DNA of 8,074 bases, from IMG/VR virus record IMGVR_UViG_2537561710_000018; one strand, given 5' to 3'. A program made the position numbers and the translations under genes. This DNA comes from a virus (lineage: Duplodnaviria > Heunggongvirae > Uroviricota > Caudoviricetes). Of this stretch, positions 1 to 7,327 are shown in pieces. The notes beneath the pieces were generated by a model that was given only the letters and a program-made list of their open reading frames with translations, searched no databases and was not told the origin of the DNA. The number at the start of each line of letters is the position of its first letter. Position 1 is the first letter of the stretch.

Positions 1-19
1 AATTGAAGCAGTTTTTACG

Positions 20-574
20 TCAAAAAGCAATAACTTTTTTCTCTATACCAAAAGCCATAACCATTGGTTTGTACAAAATAAATTCTGCCACCTTTAGCCA
101 ATGCTCAATGCGTCTTTCACAGGTTCTTAAACTCCATTCCGGATGTGCATCATTCAGCAGTTCAGCCATTTTGCGCTTAGTCATCCCCCGCCCCACATAA
201 CGCTGACTCAGAACATTGAGCAGCCCGGGATAACCTGCCAGTACTTCACCAATAACCCTGTCGATTATTAACGCCTCTGAATCGGTACAATGCACCAGCC
301 AGCTTTTTTGCTTGCCGTTGATCATATCCCGCAAAAAAGCCTCAAGTTTAGGTTTGTCCAGACCTGCTTTTTTCATCCTCCGGAGCGCCTCGTTAATTGC
401 CGTTTTTGTCAGCTTTTTAGAGGTCAGCAACTGGTTGAACATATTTCCCGTCTTACCGCCGCCAATATACGACCAGCGCCCCCACATACGTAGTTTCCCC
501 TGAATCCAGACACTTTCCAGCGTGGTGAGACGAAGGTGCTCTCCGCTTTTTCCTGTGTTCGTTGGGTAAATCAT
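20..574 (-). CDS. Putative late-gene antitermination protein Q (QuuD/PF06530-like), 184 aa; start taken at the internal ATG 572-574 that overlaps the upstream stop (ATGA) rather than the ORF-track start at 694
   Basis: Last gene of a ybcN-like/ybcO-like/Q-like minus-strand string, as in DLP12. Recalled QuuD-like motifs are present: LRMWGRWS (cf. LERWGAWA), LLTSK (cf. LITSK), DSEALII (cf. DDDAMII), YVGRGMT (cf. YVVGMTF). Comparison is from memory, not alignment. Confidence 0.6.
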   Translation of the reverse strand: MIYPTNTGKSGEHLRLTTLESVWIQGKLRMWGRWSYIGGGKTGNMFNQLLTSKKLTKTAINEALRRMKKAGLDKPKLEAFLRDMINGKQKSWLVHCTDSEALIIDRVIGEVLAGYPGLLNVLSQRYVGRGMTKRKMAELLNDAHPEWSLRTCERRIEHWLKVAEFILYKPMVMAFGIEKKVIAF

Positions 575-861
575 AAATAACCGTCCTTTCTCCAGATCTC
601 TTGTGTGCGAAAAACACCTTCTGCATGCATCAGGCGCAATTCTTCTTTGGTGTAATCGCTGGTTTTTACTCTCCCGTCGATTAAATCGTGGCATGAGTTA
701 CAGGCAATCGCTGCCTGCATATCGTGTGGCTTTATCGCTGTTCCGCACGTTCCCGCCAGCCTGTAATGCGCCAGCACAGAGGTTTCGGGATTGTGATTGC
801 AGTAGCCAGGGATTCTGATCTGGCATATCTGGCCTTTAGCCGCTTTACGTAAATTCACCAT
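571..861 (-). CDS. YbcO-like DUF1364 prophage protein (putative Cys/His metal-binding nuclease), 96 aa
   Basis: 96-aa ORF with Cys/His-rich sequence (CNHNPE, CGTAIKPHD, CNSCHD) recalled as matching E. coli DLP12 YbcO. Start ATG overlaps the upstream stop (TAATG at 859-863); stop overlaps the downstream start (ATGA). Confidence 0.6.
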   Translation of the reverse strand: MVNLRKAAKGQICQIRIPGYCNHNPETSVLAHYRLAGTCGTAIKPHDMQAAIACNSCHDLIDGRVKTSDYTKEELRLMHAEGVFRTQEIWRKDGYL

Positions 862-1460
862 TACGCAAACTCCAGTAGTTGTGCGGCCACATTTTCAACT
901 TCCTCCTGAGAGGAGAATTTACGGAACAGAATCCAGTTCCACAGCACATTCAGTACAGATTTATAAACCTGCTGAAACTCGACTTCGTCCATATTCGCAA
1001 AAGCGATGGATTTTGCCCGACGCCCACGGCTACCGTCCGGATAAATATGCTCGGTGTAAAATCCGGCCTGAATGGTTACCCACTCGCGGAAAGCCTCAAA
1101 CGACTTTAGCAACGCCGTATCCCGGGTTCTACGAGTCGCAACGGTGTTAAGGTATTGCTCTGCGGCATCACTCAGGGCTGGCGTGTGTTCCCGACCAACT
1201 GATTCGCACAGGTAATCAACGAAACCAGACAGCAGTTCTCGTTCGCGAGGCGTGATCGCCCCACCGACCGGAGTCCAGTAATCGAATCCCAGTTGCAGGA
1301 GTTTGAAAAAACGCTTGTGGAATGCGTAGTTACGCACACGCTTAAAATCTGCGTGTATCCACTCACCTATTTTGATTTGATGCAGAAAATCGCAACTCTC
1401 CGGCGTCGCCGGGAGAAGTAAACCAGAAGAAGTTTGTTTGACCAGTTGTATATGCGCCAT
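861..1460 (-). CDS. YbcN-like DUF1367 prophage protein, 199 aa
   Basis: Long ORF with E. coli-like composition, translationally coupled to the YbcO-like gene; N-terminus MAHIQLVKQ and gene order match the lambdoid nin region. Family assignment from memory. Confidence 0.5.
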   Translation of the reverse strand: MAHIQLVKQTSSGLLLPATPESCDFLHQIKIGEWIHADFKRVRNYAFHKRFFKLLQLGFDYWTPVGGAITPRERELLSGFVDYLCESVGREHTPALSDAAEQYLNTVATRRTRDTALLKSFEAFREWVTIQAGFYTEHIYPDGSRGRRAKSIAFANMDEVEFQQVYKSVLNVLWNWILFRKFSSQEEVENVAAQLLEFA

Positions 1461-1879
1461 TTCTCAATCTCTCGATGGCGCAGTGCAGCAGATGCCAGTT
1501 GTTCAAGCTAGCACGCAAATTGTAAACCAGAATGCCAGGAAAAAACAAAACCCGCCGAAGCTGGTTGTGTGCGGTTGCGTTGAAGTCTCCTAGCCAAAGA
1601 GTAGCGGTGACCACTCCCCGCCGATAATCTTAGTTGTTTAATTTCGTAAGCTAACTAGGCTAAAAGCTCTCTGTTGTCTGCCTGTTGTACAATTAACAAA
1701 ATGAACAACGAACTAGATATACCAACGCCAGAATGGTGCAACAAATCCCAAACAACACAGCAATGCAACAATAACATATGTTATTTTCCTCTCACGGGAT
1801 TCAGTCCTGAATTCTCATAAAGCTAATCTTTTTTTAAAAACATACTGTTAGATCACATGCACTTTCTTTCTTAACATCG

Positions 1880-1907
1880 TTGACTTCGCATGCGAAGCGT
1901 TTAAAAT
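1880..1907 (+). promoter_or_regulatory. Candidate sigma70 promoter of the GHKL operon with a palindromic operator-like site
   Basis: TTGACT (1880-1885), 16-nt spacer, TAAAAT (1902-1907), about 50 nt upstream of the ATG at 1960. Perfect 14-bp palindrome CTTCGCATGCGAAG (1884-1897) lies in the spacer. GAGAG Shine-Dalgarno-like element at 1950-1954. Confidence 0.4.
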
Positions 1908-1959
1908 CAACAATTTGCACTTAAGGTATTTATTTTCCCAAACACATAGAGAGTAAATT

Positions 1960-3351
1960 ATGACTGAGAACACGACTCCAACAGCAGACTTTAGTCCTAG
2001 TAAAAGATTTTTTGTAAGTATGCTAACTCGAGATATCGACTTAAACGATGCCATACTTGATCTGCTTGATAACTGCGTCGATGGGGCTTTACGTACAATA
2101 AAAGACACAAAAAAAACTTCAAAACCATATGAAGGATTTTATGCGAAACTTACGATTAATAAAGATGTCTTTATTATAGAAGACAATTGCGGAGGTATCC
2201 CTAAAAGCTTCCGAGAATATGCTTTTAAAATGGGACGACCCCATCAAAAAGAAGAAGAAAATGAAGGCACCGTTGGCGTCTATGGTATTGGTATGAAAAG
2301 AGCCATTTTTAAAATGGGTAGAGATTGCTCAATACAATCGAATAATCCCGATGGCGCATTCACTGTAGATATAACACCTGATTGGATCGATGGTGATGGT
2401 TGGAAAATACCGATGCACGAGAGTGACTATGATAACAAAAATCCAACAGGCACAACTATAGAGATAAAAAAACTCCATTCTAATGTGGCACAAAAATTTA
2501 ATGAGAGCACATATCTTACTGATCTCTTTTTACAGATAAAACACTCATTGTCATTTATTATTCAAAAAGGATTTAAAATAGAATTAAATGGAGTTGTTGT
2601 TGAACATAATCCGATTAACATCATAACTGATCATTCTAAAATAGAACCATACATATATAAAGCTAAAATAGACGATGTTGATATCGATTTAGTTGTTGGC
2701 TTCTATAAAAATTTAGAAGATGACAATGATGATGTTTTAGAAAAAAGGAGTTCTGATGATGCTGGATGGACTGTCATTTGCAATGACCGCGTTGTTCTAT
2801 ATTGTGATAAGACACATCTCACAGGTTGGGGCTTTGCTAATGTACCAAGGTTTCATACCCAATTTATAGCAATTTCTGGGGTTGTTCGCTTTACCAGTAA
2901 AAACCCAGAAAAATTACCAATAACAACAACGAAACGAGGTGTCGATCTTAGTTCTACATTGTACAATGATGTACGAAATAAAATGATTGAAGGGATGATG
3001 CATTTTATTCGATTCACCAATCAGTGGAAAGGTGAGCATCTTGAAGAAGGGAAAAAATTACTTAAGTCAGCTCAGTCACATGAAGCTCAATCTTTATTTG
3101 AAATTACCCCACAATCAACTCCAGAAGATAAAAAAAATAACTGGTCCAACCCTAATAGAAACAAAAATGAGTGGCGATATACACCTAAGCTGCCTACCCC
3201 AGTAAAAAAAAGCTCTACTGTACGAATAATCTTCACCAGAGAGAAAGAAGATGTTAAAATTTTATCTAAATATTTCTTTGGACATGAAGATGCTAGCGCT
3301 TCTGATGTGGGGATGCAATGCTTTGATACGGTGATTGAAGAGGTGAAGTGA
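1960..3351 (+). CDS. GHKL-superfamily ATPase, MORC/Hsp90/MutL-like (Bergerat fold), 463 aa
   Basis: N-box DLLDNCVDG (2059-2085) matches ExxxNxxDA/G. G1 box EDNCGG (2179-2196) matches DxGxG. G2 box GVYGIGMK (2275-2298) matches GxxGxG. All in the canonical order and spacing within the first 115 residues. Confidence 0.8.
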   Translation: MTENTTPTADFSPSKRFFVSMLTRDIDLNDAILDLLDNCVDGALRTIKDTKKTSKPYEGFYAKLTINKDVFIIEDNCGGIPKSFREYAFKMGRPHQKEEENEGTVGVYGIGMKRAIFKMGRDCSIQSNNPDGAFTVDITPDWIDGDGWKIPMHESDYDNKNPTGTTIEIKKLHSNVAQKFNESTYLTDLFLQIKHSLSFIIQKGFKIELNGVVVEHNPINIITDHSKIEPYIYKAKIDDVDIDLVVGFYKNLEDDNDDVLEKRSSDDAGWTVICNDRVVLYCDKTHLTGWGFANVPRFHTQFIAISGVVRFTSKNPEKLPITTTKRGVDLSSTLYNDVRNKMIEGMMHFIRFTNQWKGEHLEEGKKLLKSAQSHEAQSLFEITPQSTPEDKKNNWSNPNRNKNEWRYTPKLPTPVKKSSTVRIIFTREKEDVKILSKYFFGHEDASASDVGMQCFDTVIEEVK

Positions 3352-4340
3352 TGTCTGGACAATACATTCCCTATCACTTAAGGCATAATAAGTCTATTGA
3401 TAGAGAGATTTTTCTCGAAAGCCTAAACCTCTTAAGCAAAAGACTAAATATTCAAGAATATACATATATAGGTTTTGGTGGTCCGATGCTTGAAGATTTT
3501 AGAATCATGCATAATCGTATCGCTCTTTCTGATATGATTTCTCTCGAAGAACAAGAGTCTACTCACATCAGACAAAAATATAATTTGCCTTATAATTGTA
3601 TTGATTGTAAGCTAATATCAGCTCATGACTTTATTCTTGATTATAGTTTTTCTAAACCATCAATAACATGGTTAGACTATGCCTCCCCGAAAAAAATACA
3701 AACGGATCTAGATGATATACACTTACTAAGTACTAAAGTAAGCTCTTTTGATATTTTGAAGGTCACCTTCCCCATAAATCCTAGTTCTTATTACCAACGT
3801 AGAGTTGGAGAAAGTTTAGATATTTTTAAAGAAGCTTTTATTAATTCATTAAAATCATTGCTTGGGAAAAAGTATCTTGATTTTAATCTTCAGATATCAA
3901 ATGCAGATCTTTCAGATCGTAAGATTAAAGCTCTTTTAATACGAATTATTACAAACGCTTTTAGATCAGCAATAGAACGTGGTCTTTCAGGACGTAAGGA
4001 TAAGATTCAGTATTACCCATTATCCTTAAATCAATATAATGATGGCAGTCATACCATGTTGACAATATCAGGTTTTTTCTCCTCAGAACAAGAATATATA
4101 GAGTTATCTAAGGCATGCGACCTTTCTAACTGGCAATTTTATTCAACAAATTGGGAAGACGTGCAAGAAATAGCAATACCAACACTAACAATTAAAGAAA
4201 AGATAAATTTAGATAGTAAACTGCCTGATAAAGAAGCATATCAGGCAGCCGCTGAAGAGTTCTCTTTAAACGAAAATGAACGGGATAACTATTATAAATA
4301 CTATAGGTTATACCCTAACTTCCAAAGAATTATGGTTTAA
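3351..4340 (+). CDS. Uncharacterised partner protein of the GHKL ATPase, 329 aa (candidate effector or specificity subunit)
   Basis: ATG at 3351 overlaps the upstream TGA (TGATG) with GAGGTG 6 nt upstream, indicating translational coupling. Same AT-rich codon usage as the ATPase gene. No nuclease or methyltransferase motif recognised; a glycine-rich IGFGGP segment lies near the N-terminus. Confidence 0.7.
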   Translation: MSGQYIPYHLRHNKSIDREIFLESLNLLSKRLNIQEYTYIGFGGPMLEDFRIMHNRIALSDMISLEEQESTHIRQKYNLPYNCIDCKLISAHDFILDYSFSKPSITWLDYASPKKIQTDLDDIHLLSTKVSSFDILKVTFPINPSSYYQRRVGESLDIFKEAFINSLKSLLGKKYLDFNLQISNADLSDRKIKALLIRIITNAFRSAIERGLSGRKDKIQYYPLSLNQYNDGSHTMLTISGFFSSEQEYIELSKACDLSNWQFYSTNWEDVQEIAIPTLTIKEKINLDSKLPDKEAYQAAAEEFSLNENERDNYYKYYRLYPNFQRIMV

Positions 4341-5459
4341 ATATTCGGGCTGTACTCTTTTATTTAATAAATTGTACAGCCCCTTTAATATATATTCAGC
4401 AACTATTGGTGACACGCTATTTCCTATTTGTCTGAAACTATGCCATTTAGTTACATGAAAGCGAAACCAATCAGGGAAGCCTTGTAATCTAGCAGCTTCT
4501 CTTGGTGTAATCACTCTTGGATGATAAGGGTGGATCGGCCTGACGGCTTGAAAGCTTCCTTTATCTCTAGCGGTTCCCGCCCTTAAAGTCGGGCAAAAAC
4601 CATTTGGATCTAATCTTGTAGATCTTGAAATTTTATCAGTTTCCCCAAAAGATAAGGAAGCATAACGCTCTTGGACGATTTTGCTATGTAATGTTCCGGT
4701 ACATCCAGATATGATATTATTTTTTAACTTAGCGATCGATTCTGTATCACCAACATTCCGAGGGATCTGCCCCCATAATTTTTCATAAAATCCCCCTTTT
4801 CGATCTTTTTTAATTGTTCGCCAACTCTCAGAGTCTGATTGCCAATTGGCATCGATAATATCTGGTAATCCATACAAAGCATCTTTTACAGTAACCGGAT
4901 CAATCATTTTAGGCATAAATACTTCATCTGAAATATCAAGCTTCAATGATTTTTTTACACCGATAAAAAAATATCTAGTTCGAATAGTTGGAGCACCATA
5001 ATCAGATGCTTTTACCTTGATGGGATCAAGAATATCATAATCACCGCTAACCAAATTAAATGCTTTATTTCTAATGCCAGAATATTTCTCTTGCATAATA
5101 CCTGGAACATTTTCTGCCAAAAAGAATAATGGCTGTAATTCTGATACTAAACGGTAGAAATGCATGTAAAGCTGATTCCTGCTATCATCAGGATTCCCCT
5201 TGCCTATTGAACTAAATCCTTGGCACGGAGGACCGCCAATAATACCATCTATGGGCATATCGTTTTTAAAAAAACCCTTAATTATTTCTGCATTTAGTAA
5301 AGAAACATCTTCTTGGACGTGCAAACTTCTTGGAAAATTAATTGCGTGAGTATTAATAGCATGTTGATCAATTTCAACTGCCATTTTAACATCAAATCCA
5401 GCACGTGCAGCACCAAGACTTAGACCTCCAACGCCAGAAAACAAATCTATTACATTCAT
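4308..5459 (-). CDS. DNA (cytosine-5)-methyltransferase, 383 aa
   Basis: Motif I DLFSGVGG (5424-5447), motif IV GGPPCQGF with catalytic Cys (PPCQ at 5220-5231), motif VI ENV (5106-5114), a variable TRD-like region, motif IX RVITPREAARLQGFPDWF and motif X GNSV, all in canonical C5-MTase order. Confidence 0.9.
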   Translation of the reverse strand: MNVIDLFSGVGGLSLGAARAGFDVKMAVEIDQHAINTHAINFPRSLHVQEDVSLLNAEIIKGFFKNDMPIDGIIGGPPCQGFSSIGKGNPDDSRNQLYMHFYRLVSELQPLFFLAENVPGIMQEKYSGIRNKAFNLVSGDYDILDPIKVKASDYGAPTIRTRYFFIGVKKSLKLDISDEVFMPKMIDPVTVKDALYGLPDIIDANWQSDSESWRTIKKDRKGGFYEKLWGQIPRNVGDTESIAKLKNNIISGCTGTLHSKIVQERYASLSFGETDKISRSTRLDPNGFCPTLRAGTARDKGSFQAVRPIHPYHPRVITPREAARLQGFPDWFRFHVTKWHSFRQIGNSVSPIVAEYILKGLYNLLNKRVQPEYLNHNSLEVRV

Positions 5460-5483
5460 ATAGTTGCAACGTCTCTTATTAGT

Positions 5484-5500
5484 TTCTATGTATTATAACA
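5484..5500 (-). promoter_or_regulatory. Candidate extended -10 promoter of the methyltransferase gene
   Basis: Minus strand reads TGTTATAAT (TGnTATAAT; hexamer at 5492-5497, TG at 5499-5500), about 30 nt upstream of the ATG at 5459. The -35 is weak (TAAAAC/TTAAAA). Confidence 0.4.
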
Positions 5501-5721
5501 CAACTGTTCTTGATGTTTTAACCCCATAAGATAACCTCATAAAGGCTATCCCTTGAAAATACCGGATCGCATAAATTTAATCTTTCAAAACTACTTGTCT
5601 ATTAATCGAGCAATTTAAGGTTGTTTTAGTCATGTCGATACCGACATAGTTAACTAAACCCATTTCATCGTCCAACAAATGGGGGTAATACACTTTGATT
5701 TATAGTCGGGTGGGTTTTTCT

Positions 5722-5757
5722 CTATCTGCCTTTGGTGTTCATGCCCAAGGCAGATAG
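5722..5757. repeat. Perfect 11-bp inverted repeat (CTATCTGCCTT, 14-nt spacer, AAGGCAGATAG)
   Basis: Arms at 5722-5732 and 5747-5757 are exact reverse complements. Located in the non-coding region at the right-hand composition transition of the island. No adjacent U-run on either strand, so not a classical intrinsic terminator. Confidence 0.5.
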
Positions 5758-5890
5758 CCTCAAGCACCCGCAGCAATTCTACTTAACTATCCTTTTCCCG
5801 CAAACCGTTTTTATCCCCAGCGGCAAATCGAATACACCACCAGCGCCACCGCCATCGCAATTCCTACCGTTGTGAATGCTTCAGGCCAGG

Positions 5891-6448
5891 TCATTGATTC
5901 ACCTCCTGCGGCGGTTCTGGTAGCGACATCCAGTGGGTTGCTTGCCTAAGATCATTACCCGGACTAACTGCTATACCTCCGCGCCGGAACGTGCCTCCGA
6001 GATAGCGTGCGGAATATATTAATGGCCCAGCCTCGCTATCGATATTCATCGAAATAAGCACGTTCTGGCTCTTTTCAGGCATTCGCTCAGTACAGCTTAT
6101 CCAGCCATCCAGAGTTATCGGAGATCTGGTTGACGTTTCCGAGATTTCCCGAAAATTGTTGGTTGACGAATTCTTATTTTCCCGAAAGTTTCCGGCCTGA
6201 AGCATGGCGACGCGGCAGGCGTTCCAGCCATCAGCATATGTTTTAGTTACACCGTCGAGATGGCAGGTAAGCAAATCCATTTCATCAGGCACTACCATTG
6301 CTATCGGCTCTGCTTCCAGTGATGCCAGCGCGATACGAAACACATTAGCCAGCAGGCTGTCTGAAGACTTGTTATCGTGCGCCGAGTCGCTCAGGAAGCC
6401 TGTGATGTATGATTTAATCTCCGCGCGTTCTCTGGTAATAGTGCTCAT
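5891..6448 (-). CDS. DUF551-like prophage protein, 185 aa
   Basis: C-terminal ATHWMSLPEPP resembles the conserved THWMPLPEPP tail recalled for DUF551 prophage proteins. E. coli-like composition; tightly packed with the upstream gene (2-nt gap). Confidence 0.55.
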   Translation of the reverse strand: MSTITRERAEIKSYITGFLSDSAHDNKSSDSLLANVFRIALASLEAEPIAMVVPDEMDLLTCHLDGVTKTYADGWNACRVAMLQAGNFRENKNSSTNNFREISETSTRSPITLDGWISCTERMPEKSQNVLISMNIDSEAGPLIYSARYLGGTFRRGGIAVSPGNDLRQATHWMSLPEPPQEVNQ

Positions 6449-6449
6449 A

Positions 6450-6668
6450 TCAGTTTTCCTTATACGGATTAATTTTATTGTGCAGTGCGCTGAATGATTC
6501 CCATGTCACATCGGTATATAGCTCAATAACTGGTTCAAATGTCCTTCCAATTATCCAGACCAGTAATAGCGGGGATATCGGTATCATCAACACTATAAAC
6601 AGAATGAAAAACAGAAACTCTGTTGTTCTGCTCTTTCGTGGGTAATTTTTTTCTAAATAATGTTTCAT
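6450..6668 (-). CDS. Small hydrophobic (predicted membrane) prophage protein, 72 aa
   Basis: ORF contains a long hydrophobic stretch (FLFFILFIVLMIPISPLLLVWIIG) consistent with a transmembrane helix; stop is 2 nt from the downstream gene start. Function unknown. Confidence 0.4.
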   Translation of the reverse strand: MKHYLEKNYPRKSRTTEFLFFILFIVLMIPISPLLLVWIIGRTFEPVIELYTDVTWESFSALHNKINPYKEN

Positions 6669-6674
6669 TTCTTA

Positions 6675-6690
6675 CCGCCCTTTCGGGCGG
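6675..6690. repeat. GC-rich hairpin (CCGCCC-TTTC-GGGCGG) just upstream of the small membrane protein start codon
   Basis: 6-bp GC stem with 4-nt loop; on the minus strand it ends 6 nt before the ATG at 6668-6666. No U-run follows on either strand. Confidence 0.4.
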
Positions 6691-6795
6691 CCTCCTGATG
6701 TTCTGAGGGTGCAGGAATCCCTCCGGTTAAGGATTTAATAAAAATCGTTTCTGATTTAAATCTTCAGTATTTAGTTGTTAGTTGGTTTATCGCCT

Positions 6796-7107
6796 TTATG
6801 CTTCAGCCTTATTTCGCAACCAGACACAAACCGGGCCATCTTCCGTATCATGAATGGAACCAATAAACCAGCCATCGCCCTCTGGTCGTTCCGGTTCCCA
6901 TGCAGAAATATCAGCATCACACGCATCAAGGTCAGCACATCCTTCATCTCTGAAGCAGAGGACGTATTGAAGATTATTTTCCTCCATCCAGGCGTTAAAC
7001 TCTTCCGTTGAAATATATTCCCGACCATCACAGAATTTTTCATATTCAGGATGTGTCCAGTAGCCATATCCGTCACGAACTACCGGCATTTCTTTAATTT
7101 CACTCAC
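6796..7107 (-). CDS. Highly acidic, Trp-rich small prophage protein, 103 aa, function unknown
   Basis: GTG start at 7105-7107 preceded by AGGAGG with 6-nt spacing. About 25 Asp/Glu against about 8 Lys/Arg by my count. Chosen over the overlapping 6771-7076 ORF because of the Shine-Dalgarno element and protein-like composition. Confidence 0.5.
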   Translation of the reverse strand: MSEIKEMPVVRDGYGYWTHPEYEKFCDGREYISTEEFNAWMEENNLQYVLCFRDEGCADLDACDADISAWEPERPEGDGWFIGSIHDTEDGPVCVWLRNKAEA

Positions 7108-7327
7108 TGTTAACCTCCTGCAACGCTACACGATACGCCTTCTTTATCCACGCCTTACTGCCATATAATTTCGTCTTCATAATAAACACACCTGCACGAC
7201 TCGCCGATATCCCCGGACAGGTTAACAGCACAGCATCCACCACACGGTTATGCTTCCGAAACTCCATTACAGTACTGCTGATAACCACCTGCCCCACCGG
7301 GCCGTAATCCTGATACAGGATTTTCAC
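7100..7327 (-). CDS. Hypothetical small prophage protein, 75 aa
   Basis: GTG start at 7325-7327 overlaps the upstream stop (GTGA), suggesting translational coupling; stop overlaps the downstream start region. No recognisable motif. Confidence 0.35.
   Translation of the reverse strand: MKILYQDYGPVGQVVISSTVMEFRKHNRVVDAVLLTCPGISASRAGVFIMKTKLYGSKAWIKKAYRVALQEVNSE

Follow-up and report, generated by a model that had tools for sequence, protein, structure and literature searches.

We investigated a stretch of 8,074 nucleotides of virus DNA (Caudoviricetes; IMG/VR virus record IMGVR_UViG_2537561710_000018; hereafter, the window is this whole stretch), in which an AT-rich island of three genes stands among the genes of a lambdoid prophage. 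We consider it probable, at roughly 60%, that this island is a mobile cassette of a defence and cargo hotspot, which replaces the core of a hok/sok locus and encodes a methylation-based, restriction–modification (R-M)-like anti-phage system. The three genes encode a MORC-family GHKL ATPase, a PF20553 protein with an S-adenosylmethionine (SAM)-methyltransferase fold (MT35) and a cytosine-5 (C5) DNA methylase, and probably serve to discriminate own from foreign DNA. The island is already known sequence in reference Escherichia coli O157:H7 genomes (prophage Sp10 of strain Sakai, and EDL933). What appears to be new here is the definition of an obligatory PF20553 partner within a near-invariant trio that has no recurrent nuclease, and, judging from the comparisons below, the quantified conservation across phyla and the exact anatomy of a hok-anchored cargo slot in lambdoid prophages.

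Composition and junctions of the island

The island and its two anchors comprise the following features.

1485-1583, minus strand: left anchor, 3' remnant of the hok locus with a terminator-like hairpin and T-run (~90% identity to the DNA 3' of hokD in loci L027 and L029)
1584-1959, plus strand: left non-coding DNA, island-specific, with a candidate sigma-70 promoter for the MORC-MT35 operon at 1880-1907 (TTGACT-16-TAAAAT)
1960-3351, plus strand: MORC-family GHKL ATPase
3348-4340, plus strand: MT35, the PF20553 protein with a SAM-methyltransferase fold
4308-5459, minus strand: C5 DNA methylase (PF00145, E = 3e-61 over the full length; TIGR00675; PADLOC MTase_II, E = 2e-98)
5460-5711, minus strand: right non-coding DNA, island-specific, with a candidate extended −10 promoter at 5521-5492 (TTAAAA-18-TATAAT plus TG)
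5712-5816, minus strand: right anchor, hok promoter and intact 5' hok-mRNA stem-loop (Rfam RF01794; 88% identity to L027 and L029)

An earlier sequence-only reading had placed a compositionally foreign island at 1621-5700. Calculation agreed with it closely: a two-breakpoint maximum-likelihood segmentation put the breakpoints at 1620 and 5700 (log-likelihood gain 84), and in a sliding-window profile the G+C content (GC) dropped from 0.48-0.53 to 0.30-0.37 between ~1650 and 5700. The contrast extended to codon usage, with GC at third codon positions (GC3) of 0.269, 0.245 and 0.250 in the three island genes and of 0.50-0.53 in the adjoining DUF1367, YbcO, Q-like and DUF551 genes; for the flanks, the range was 0.50-0.58. 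Delimited by homology, the island spans 1584-5711 (4,128 bp) and has 34.9% GC, against 48-49% in its flanks. The same reading had described 400-500 bp of non-coding DNA on each side of the genes, and we measured 499 bp (1461-1959) and 431 bp (5460-5890); however, only the inner parts belong to the island (1584-1959, 37% GC; 5460-5711, 34% GC), whereas the outer parts (1461-1583 and 5712-5890; ~50% GC) consist of conserved DNA of the prophage and of hok. The genes also behaved as variable cargo and not as conserved core, the island junction being present in 173 of the 2,645 E. coli genomes that match the DUF1367 flank and the trio in 10 of the 62 IMG/VR prophages whose DUF1367 is nearly identical. 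Because neither uniform GC nor a conserved core was found, the core claim of a foreign island stands.

Homology mapping against island-free prophages and E. coli genomes placed the junctions at ~1583/1584 and 5711/5712. The left anchor is common to thousands of E. coli genomes. In the right anchor, the candidate hok promoter (−10 element TAGAAT at 5781-5776, read from the sequence) points into the island toward the methylase gene, and the 5' stem-loop of the hok mRNA folded with a z-score of −5.5 relative to shuffled sequence. The Rfam sok model RF01794 matched the 5' half of the hok/sok element at 5769-5712 on the minus strand with 50.2 bits (E = 4e-9), and the alignment decayed at ~5712, that is, at the right junction; the intact hok/sok locus of L027, used as a control, scored 117.5 bits. 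The window does not contain an intact hok/sok locus, as the RF01794 match lies under the gathering score of 59 and covers the 5' half only, and no Hok-like open reading frame (ORF) was found. Nor was a remnant of the hok core present inside the island edges. In L027 and L029, both conserved blocks lie ~318 bp apart with hokD between them, and in the 10 trio-bearing IMG/VR prophages the hok anchors were always separated by a gap of 4,128 bp. The island is thus a clean replacement of the ~318-bp hok/sok core by 4,128 bp of other DNA. Of the hok/sok (hokD/relF) locus of lambdoid prophages, the island edges keep the promoter, the stem-loop at the 5' end of the mRNA and the 3' region, whereas sok and the reading frames of hok and mok have been lost. 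The sequence-only reading had located the island correctly, between a DUF551-like and a "ybcN-like" gene, but its picture of a simple insertion does not hold, since the hok/sok core was replaced.

Neither direct nor inverted repeats were found at the 1584 and 5711 junctions, and the ORF list and Pfam matches of the region included no integrase or transposase gene, in agreement with what had been noticed from the letters alone. The hallmarks of a transposon or integrative element (a recombinase, and terminal repeats or a target-site duplication) are therefore absent from the window. With no terminal repeats and no recombinase, homologous exchange through the conserved flanks is the likely route. 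Accordingly, the earlier remark that the mechanism of acquisition was not evident was right as to the missing mobility signature, but a route can now be proposed.

Three further candidates around the junctions and within the island were rejected. A 10-nt match (TTCGTAAGCT) was considered as a remnant of hok coding sequence, and 39 of 500 shuffles scored equally well. The terminator-like hairpin of the left anchor has one stem mismatch and a fold z-score of −0.5, not above that of shuffles, and a functional hok terminator at 1535-1560 is not established. An Rfam rli31 match at 3812-3913 (E = 0.51) was dismissed as chance.

The three genes and their conservation

The MORC and MT35 genes form an operon on the plus strand, convergent with the C5 methylase gene on the minus strand. 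The MORC-MT35 pair is predicted from its gene overlap to be translationally coupled. The 3' ends of the MT35 and methylase genes overlap by 33 bp (4308-4340) with no terminator between them, an arrangement that could couple expression through transcriptional interference. Individual promoter candidates are sensibly placed upstream of both transcription units, the one for the methylase ~30 nt upstream of its start. In array data, ECs1954/1955 mRNA falls 6-9-fold at stationary-phase entry (PMC2241611), which indicates that the genes are transcribed in growing lysogens, and the C5 methylase protein has been detected in vivo (PMC12551062).

In an alignment of 37 sequences, the GHKL motifs of the MORC ATPase (D34xxxN38xxD41, D75xGG, G106xYGIG and G164-T165) were invariant, with Asp and not Glu at the general-base position. 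The S5-fold transducer domain with its conserved basic finger is present. The MORC-specific signature GhXhhpXXRhl (PMC2292703) corresponds to G269-W-T-V-I-C-N-D-R277-V-V, in which G, W, T, C, N, D, R and V were invariant in the same 37 sequences. MT35 has a seven-stranded Rossmann-like methyltransferase fold, and its nearest folds are nucleic-acid methyltransferases. Among 68 divergent sequences (median identity 30%), its SAM-site markers G44 and E67 were kept in 65 and 68, respectively, and D110 was also kept; motif IV reads W-L-D110-Y-A-S-P. Neither of the known catalytic motifs searched for in MT35, the (D/N)PP(Y/F) of amino-methyltransferases or a K-D-K-E tetrad, is present. The tetrad of 2'-O-methyltransferases had been a candidate, with K15, D110 and E284 invariant; K138 is not conserved in the broad alignment, so that the label "O-methyltransferase" is at most tentative. 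A profile search of MT35 against PDB sequences returned nothing meaningful, and PHROGs lists both the MORC and MT35 proteins as families of unknown function. The C5 methylase is essentially identical to PDB 3G7U (E = 1e-254, residues 1-367), which we take to be a structural-genomics entry for the CP-933R prophage methylase. Its matches in PADLOC were limited to the generic MTase_II, DruM and DrmMII models.

We examined how widely the three genes occur together. With the ATPase as seed, a scan of metagenomes yielded 80 loci, of which 69 were non-redundant (40-47% ATPase identity) and 57 of these had judgeable flanks; an earlier scan of genome contigs with the MT35 alignment had given 5 loci, its back-translated patterns being too narrow. 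The full trio was found in 52 of the 57 loci, with the methylase upstream and co-directional in 31, convergent as in the window in 19, and downstream and co-directional in 2. In a bulk Pfam scan of 150 flanking ORFs, Vsr was the only recurrent neighbour (14 ORFs), the others including HhH-GPD glycosylases (3), EcoRII (2) and HNH_2 (2). PF20553 comprised ~1,800 clusters at 50% identity (E ≤ 1e-10), the top matches being nearly all standalone proteins of ~330 amino acids (aa), and ATPase homologues at ~45% identity formed more than 5,400 clusters at 90% identity. Divergent PF20553 trios occurred in Leptospira (with Vsr and an integrase), in an integrative element (adjoining an HNH/ScoMcrA gene), in one chromosomal locus, and in Yersinia lambdoid prophages in the same slot as here. 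In Gemmatimonadota loci, the trio was nested within Type I R-M genes. In the 13.6-kb filamentous Pseudomonas Pf phage PfAC20 (PP058144.1; L031:280-3711), a co-directional trio constitutes ORF1-3. The Microvirga terrae plasmid pR24_2 (L032:449-12987) carries the MORC-PF20553 pair without a C5 methylase inside a DISARM operon, in the order DrmD, MmeI-like methylase, the pair, DrmA, DUF1998 and DrmC. Taken over these loci, the trio is a system conserved across phyla.

MORC-type ATPases linked to cytosine methylases and Vsr were predicted computationally in 2008 (Iyer, Abhiman & Aravind, PMC2292703), and a minority of the MORC neighbourhoods described there have methylases without a helicase. Our cassette shares with those prokaryotic MORC/paraMORC operons the GHKL plus S5 ATPase, the GhXhhpXXRhl signature, the cytosine methylase and, often, Vsr. 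It differs in its obligatory PF20553 partner, which PMC2292703 does not describe, and in having no superfamily II helicase and no nuclease of the restriction-endonuclease fold, HNH or PLD type, the comparison being computational. With Type II R-M systems built on a C5 methylase (M.HaeIII, M.HhaI), it has in common a canonical C5 methylase, tight linkage, convergent layout and Vsr, whereas a recognisable endonuclease is lacking and the methylase is partnered by an ATPase and a protein with a methyltransferase fold. It resembles BREX and DISARM in combining self-marking by a methylase with ATPase-containing effectors, and the MORC-MT35 pair occurs in the one DISARM operon mentioned above; however, PglZ, BrxC and DrmA/B/C are absent from the window, there are only three genes, and the methylase is of the C5 and not the N6 type. 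Two other comparisons were set aside: ARMADA, the DISARM-related array of EDL933, has no GHKL or PF20553 component and is not the home of the pair, and VcSduA/paraMORC3 (GHKL plus Shedu nuclease) is not comparable, as no DUF4263 nuclease is present here.

The cargo slot and the flanking prophage genes

The sequence-only reading had taken the site for a recurrent cargo slot, and the survey bore this out. We sampled 80 IMG/VR prophage loci whose DUF1367 proteins are 97-100% identical, 62 of them with at least 4.5 kb of upstream sequence. Upstream of DUF1367, these 62 prophages had 28 different configurations, and known defence systems account for many of these. Besides the trio, the slot held the following.

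IetAS (E = 1e-143 and 1e-302)
IetS-like pair
PD-T7-3 (L063; E = 3.5e-168)
triple of adenosine deaminase, Ham1/ITPase and SIR2/ThsA-like protein (L078:4713-7086)
C5 methylase with a PtuA/AriA-like AAA ATPase
C5 methylase with a 660-aa protein bearing an N-terminal HATPase_c_3 domain (L093:4805-7829; PADLOC REase_II, E = 1e-52)
AbiLi-like ATPase
Sll1717-type P-loop ATPase, in strain EC93 beside a hok fragment
insertion sequence elements
LysR/ChaC-like/MFS set
several gene pairs of unknown function

In the prophage PV15-279, the slot holds hok and a YgiW-family gene. The GC of the cargos ranged from 34% to 49%, with other AT-rich cargos at 34-39%. The slot is a prophage cargo and defence hotspot, with conserved flanks, variable content and enrichment in anti-phage systems. 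Such prophage hotspots are an established concept (Rousset 2022, PMC9122126; Vassallo 2022, bioRxiv 10.1101/2022.05.12.491691), and PD-T7-3 itself comes from an E. coli pangenome screen (bioRxiv 10.1101/2022.05.12.491691). As in the P2/P4 hotspots and the E. coli pangenome screen of these reports, conserved phage genes bracket very variable, AT-rich cargo made up mostly of anti-phage systems; the difference is that here the family is lambdoid and the slot, upstream of DUF1367 or DUF968 and Q, is anchored by hok/sok. We found no literature description of a hok-anchored lambdoid slot. The parallel drawn with prophage DLP12 is right in position, since emrE/ybcK/ybcL/ybcM/ylcH lie there upstream of ybcN-ninE-ybcO-rusA-quuD.

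One- or two-gene cargos without a PADLOC match were observed upstream of DUF1367 in L048, L047, L070, L100, L081 and L039, and by their position such PADLOC-negative cargos are candidate new defence genes. The L078 triple may be an uncharacterised nucleotide-targeting defence set, and the L093 pair, judging from its domains, looks like a second, different GHKL-based R-M-like pair.

The cassette also occupies the same slot in more distant phages. The ATPase and MT35 are 74% and 67% identical to those of the window in L015/L016, and 65% and 53% identical in the Yersinia loci L019/L020; L014, whose backbone is of the DUF968 type, has the cassette at the corresponding position. Across lambdoid phages, the cassette proteins were 53-85% identical to those of the window and the neighbouring DUF1367 was ~50% identical. 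Divergent cassette proteins on divergent DUF1367 backbones indicate a long-standing passenger of the lambdoid gene pool and not a recent one-off. Yersinia L019 was considered as a locus without a methylase and was rejected, because the ORF is intact and was merely not called. In L014 and L016 (e.g., L016:2036-2503), tandem copies of the small RNA STnc100 (RF02076, 78-88 bits) were observed downstream of the Q region.

The prophage genes that adjoin the island in the window are listed below.

20-574/694, minus strand: Q-like DUF1133 antiterminator (gene map)
571-861, minus strand: YbcO (gene map)
861-1460, minus strand: DUF1367 protein, left flank gene and first of the DUF1367-YbcO-Q module (PF07105, E = 6e-98; phrog_319, E = 7e-70)
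5811-5894, minus strand: hydrophobic small ORF of 27 aa within the conserved block, its start overlapping the DUF551 stop codon (ATGA)
5891-6448, minus strand: DUF551 protein, right flank gene of the nin-region module (PF04448, E = 5e-20)

The name "ybcN-like" given to the left flank gene by the sequence-only reading was apt in position and in PHROG label, DUF1367 (phrog_319) and YbcN (phrog_72) both being labelled NinB/Orf, but BLASTP found no similarity between the two proteins. For the Q-like ORF, two starts are possible: one at 694 gives 224 aa and a 124-bp overlap with ybcO, and the RefSeq start at 574 gives 184 aa. In the long form, the match to Pfam sets in at residue 41. The 27-aa ORF (MTWPEAFTTVGIAMAVALVVYSICRWG) had no PHROG match. 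To the right of the island, the minus-strand genes are DUF1627, a helix-turn-helix protein, small ORFs, DUF4014 and DUF551. The DUF4014 gene (6450-6668, minus strand), directly outside the island, has 35.6% GC and a GC3 of 0.40, and its neighbours are not low.

Positions 1-5894 of the window are 99.97% identical to the Sp10 prophage of E. coli O157:H7 Sakai (ECs_1953-1955) and to EDL933, and positions 5712-7249 are 99.7% identical to the island-free O157 prophage PV15-279, in which hok follows DUF551. Because its left and right parts match different O157 prophages, the window is a mosaic, and the same Sp10-like/PV15-279-like mosaic was found in IMG/VR contig L074. The two parental matches share only the 183 bp of 5712-5894, which hold the hok promoter and the small ORF, and this hok 5' block is the likely crossover point. 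A mosaic joint at this place supports homologous exchange as the route by which cassettes move. The island occurs in about 164-173 of 5,426 complete E. coli genomes. No close copy was found in the INPHARED phage collection, where the sole match was the 29%-identical homologue in PfAC20.

Proposed function and competing explanations

In the reading that we prefer, the cassette, which lies between the replication/nin module and the NinB-like-YbcO-Q module of lambdoid prophages, would be a moron expressed in the lysogen, and cassettes would probably be exchanged among prophages by homologous recombination in the conserved flanks. The C5 methylase would mark resident DNA as self; its 5-methylcytosine (m5C) activity is suggested by the intact motifs and the recurrent Vsr linkage. 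The MORC-MT35 pair is proposed to be an ATP-driven effector or sensor directed against unmethylated incoming DNA. Given that no nuclease fold is detectable, the effector would either use an unrecognised catalytic site or be non-nucleolytic, in which case the options, of low certainty, are that it clamps or compacts DNA in the manner of MORC proteins or that PF20553 adds a second methylation. The cassette would exclude competing phages, and may in addition stabilise the prophage, as the displaced hok/sok locus would have. A bolder form of this proposal, which we put forward as possible but on balance doubtful, is that the trio represents a widespread nuclease-free immune system, in which a bacterial MORC clamps, compacts or silences DNA without the cognate m5C, and MT35 is a reader of unmethylated sites or a second modifier.

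Several observations weigh against reading the cassette as an R-M-like defence system exchanged through hok anchors. No nuclease fold was detected in MORC or MT35, no nuclease recurred among the 150 flanking ORFs, and PADLOC 2.0 models gave zero matches to MORC and MT35 at E ≤ 0.01. In a few loci (L024, L145 and the DISARM operon of L032), no C5 methylase gene adjoins the pair, so that the effector is not obligatorily tied to a neighbouring C5 enzyme. Since MT35 keeps its SAM-site residues, it may act not as a sensor but as a second, active methyltransferase. Remnants of hok adjoin the cassette in E. coli alone, with none beside it in other genera, and the promoter and terminator scan was overall no better than for shuffled sequence. 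In the literature, we found no functional study of PF20553 or of bacterial MORC defence.

Another reading is that of a classical Type II-like restriction enzyme of two subunits with its methylase, in which MORC-MT35 would cut unmethylated DNA through a nuclease site missed by current profiles. We regard this as somewhat unlikely. The tight linkage to a C5 methylase, in the convergent and co-directional layouts typical of R-M, and the linkage to Vsr are in its favour, as are the invariant polar residues that MORC and MT35 hold outside their cofactor-binding motifs (in MT35, Y9, R12, N14, K15, R19, R75, Y230, D232 and E284). Moreover, the match of the protein with an N-terminal GHKL domain in L093 to REase_II means that GHKL-containing restriction enzymes are catalogued. 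Of the components that define a Type II R-M system, the methylase with catalytic motifs is present, and a cognate endonuclease with a recognisable nuclease fold is not. It is unlikely that the cassette instead serves the phage as a DNA or RNA modification module, protecting the DNA of phage and host against other restriction systems or tuning gene expression, with MT35 perhaps as a second active methyltransferase and MORC as its loader. Orphan methylases are common on phages, no nuclease is present, the MT35 residues G44, E67 and D110 are kept in a protein whose nearest folds act on nucleic acids, and the cassette rides on two unrelated types of temperate phage, lambdoid and Pf inovirus. However, chromosomal Type I R-M loci also harbour the trio, and a DISARM operon the pair, with no phage context in either case, and the slot is shared with validated defence systems. 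In addition, an anti-restriction methylase needs no ATPase partner, yet the partner is kept in more than 90% of loci.

The precise replacement of a type I toxin–antitoxin locus raises the question of whether the cassette is chiefly a selfish addiction module, which would take over the role of hok/sok by post-segregational killing upon loss of methylation, with defence as a by-product. R-M systems can behave as addiction modules, and the convergent gene-end overlap of 33 bp is an arrangement able to impose expression control. We nevertheless consider this decidedly unlikely, since the cassette occupies the slot in other genera without hok remnants, the other occupants are mostly defence systems and not toxin–antitoxin pairs, and loci without an adjacent methylase exist. 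Least probable by far is that a transposon or integrative element, its mobility genes since lost, recently brought in the island as foreign DNA in a single event: the strong compositional contrast and the framing of the sequence-only reading would suit this, but other cargos of the slot are equally AT-rich (34-39% GC), neither a target-site duplication nor terminal inverted repeats, integrase or transposase was found, and the same slot holds cassette proteins 53-74% identical next to a DUF1367 that is ~50% identical. We therefore retain a methylation-based defence cassette as the most probable reading.

For lambdoid prophages, a major group in pathogenic E. coli, these results give exact coordinates and alternative states for a hotspot of defence cargo, in which several unknown gene pairs are candidates for new anti-phage systems. 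The clean replacement of hok/sok with its ends kept suggests that small toxin–antitoxin loci can serve cargo exchange as landing pads or as hinges for recombination. In the cassette, a true member of the MORC family is tied to cytosine-5 methylation with no recognisable nuclease. The trio has stood unrecognised within reference O157:H7 genomes, and a crystal structure of the methylase is already deposited. It could reveal how bacterial MORC ATPases work and whether the tie to methylation in eukaryotic silencing is ancestral. If the nuclease-free system is real, the link between MORC and cytosine methylation in eukaryotic silencing would have in the trio a prokaryotic counterpart and perhaps an ancestor.

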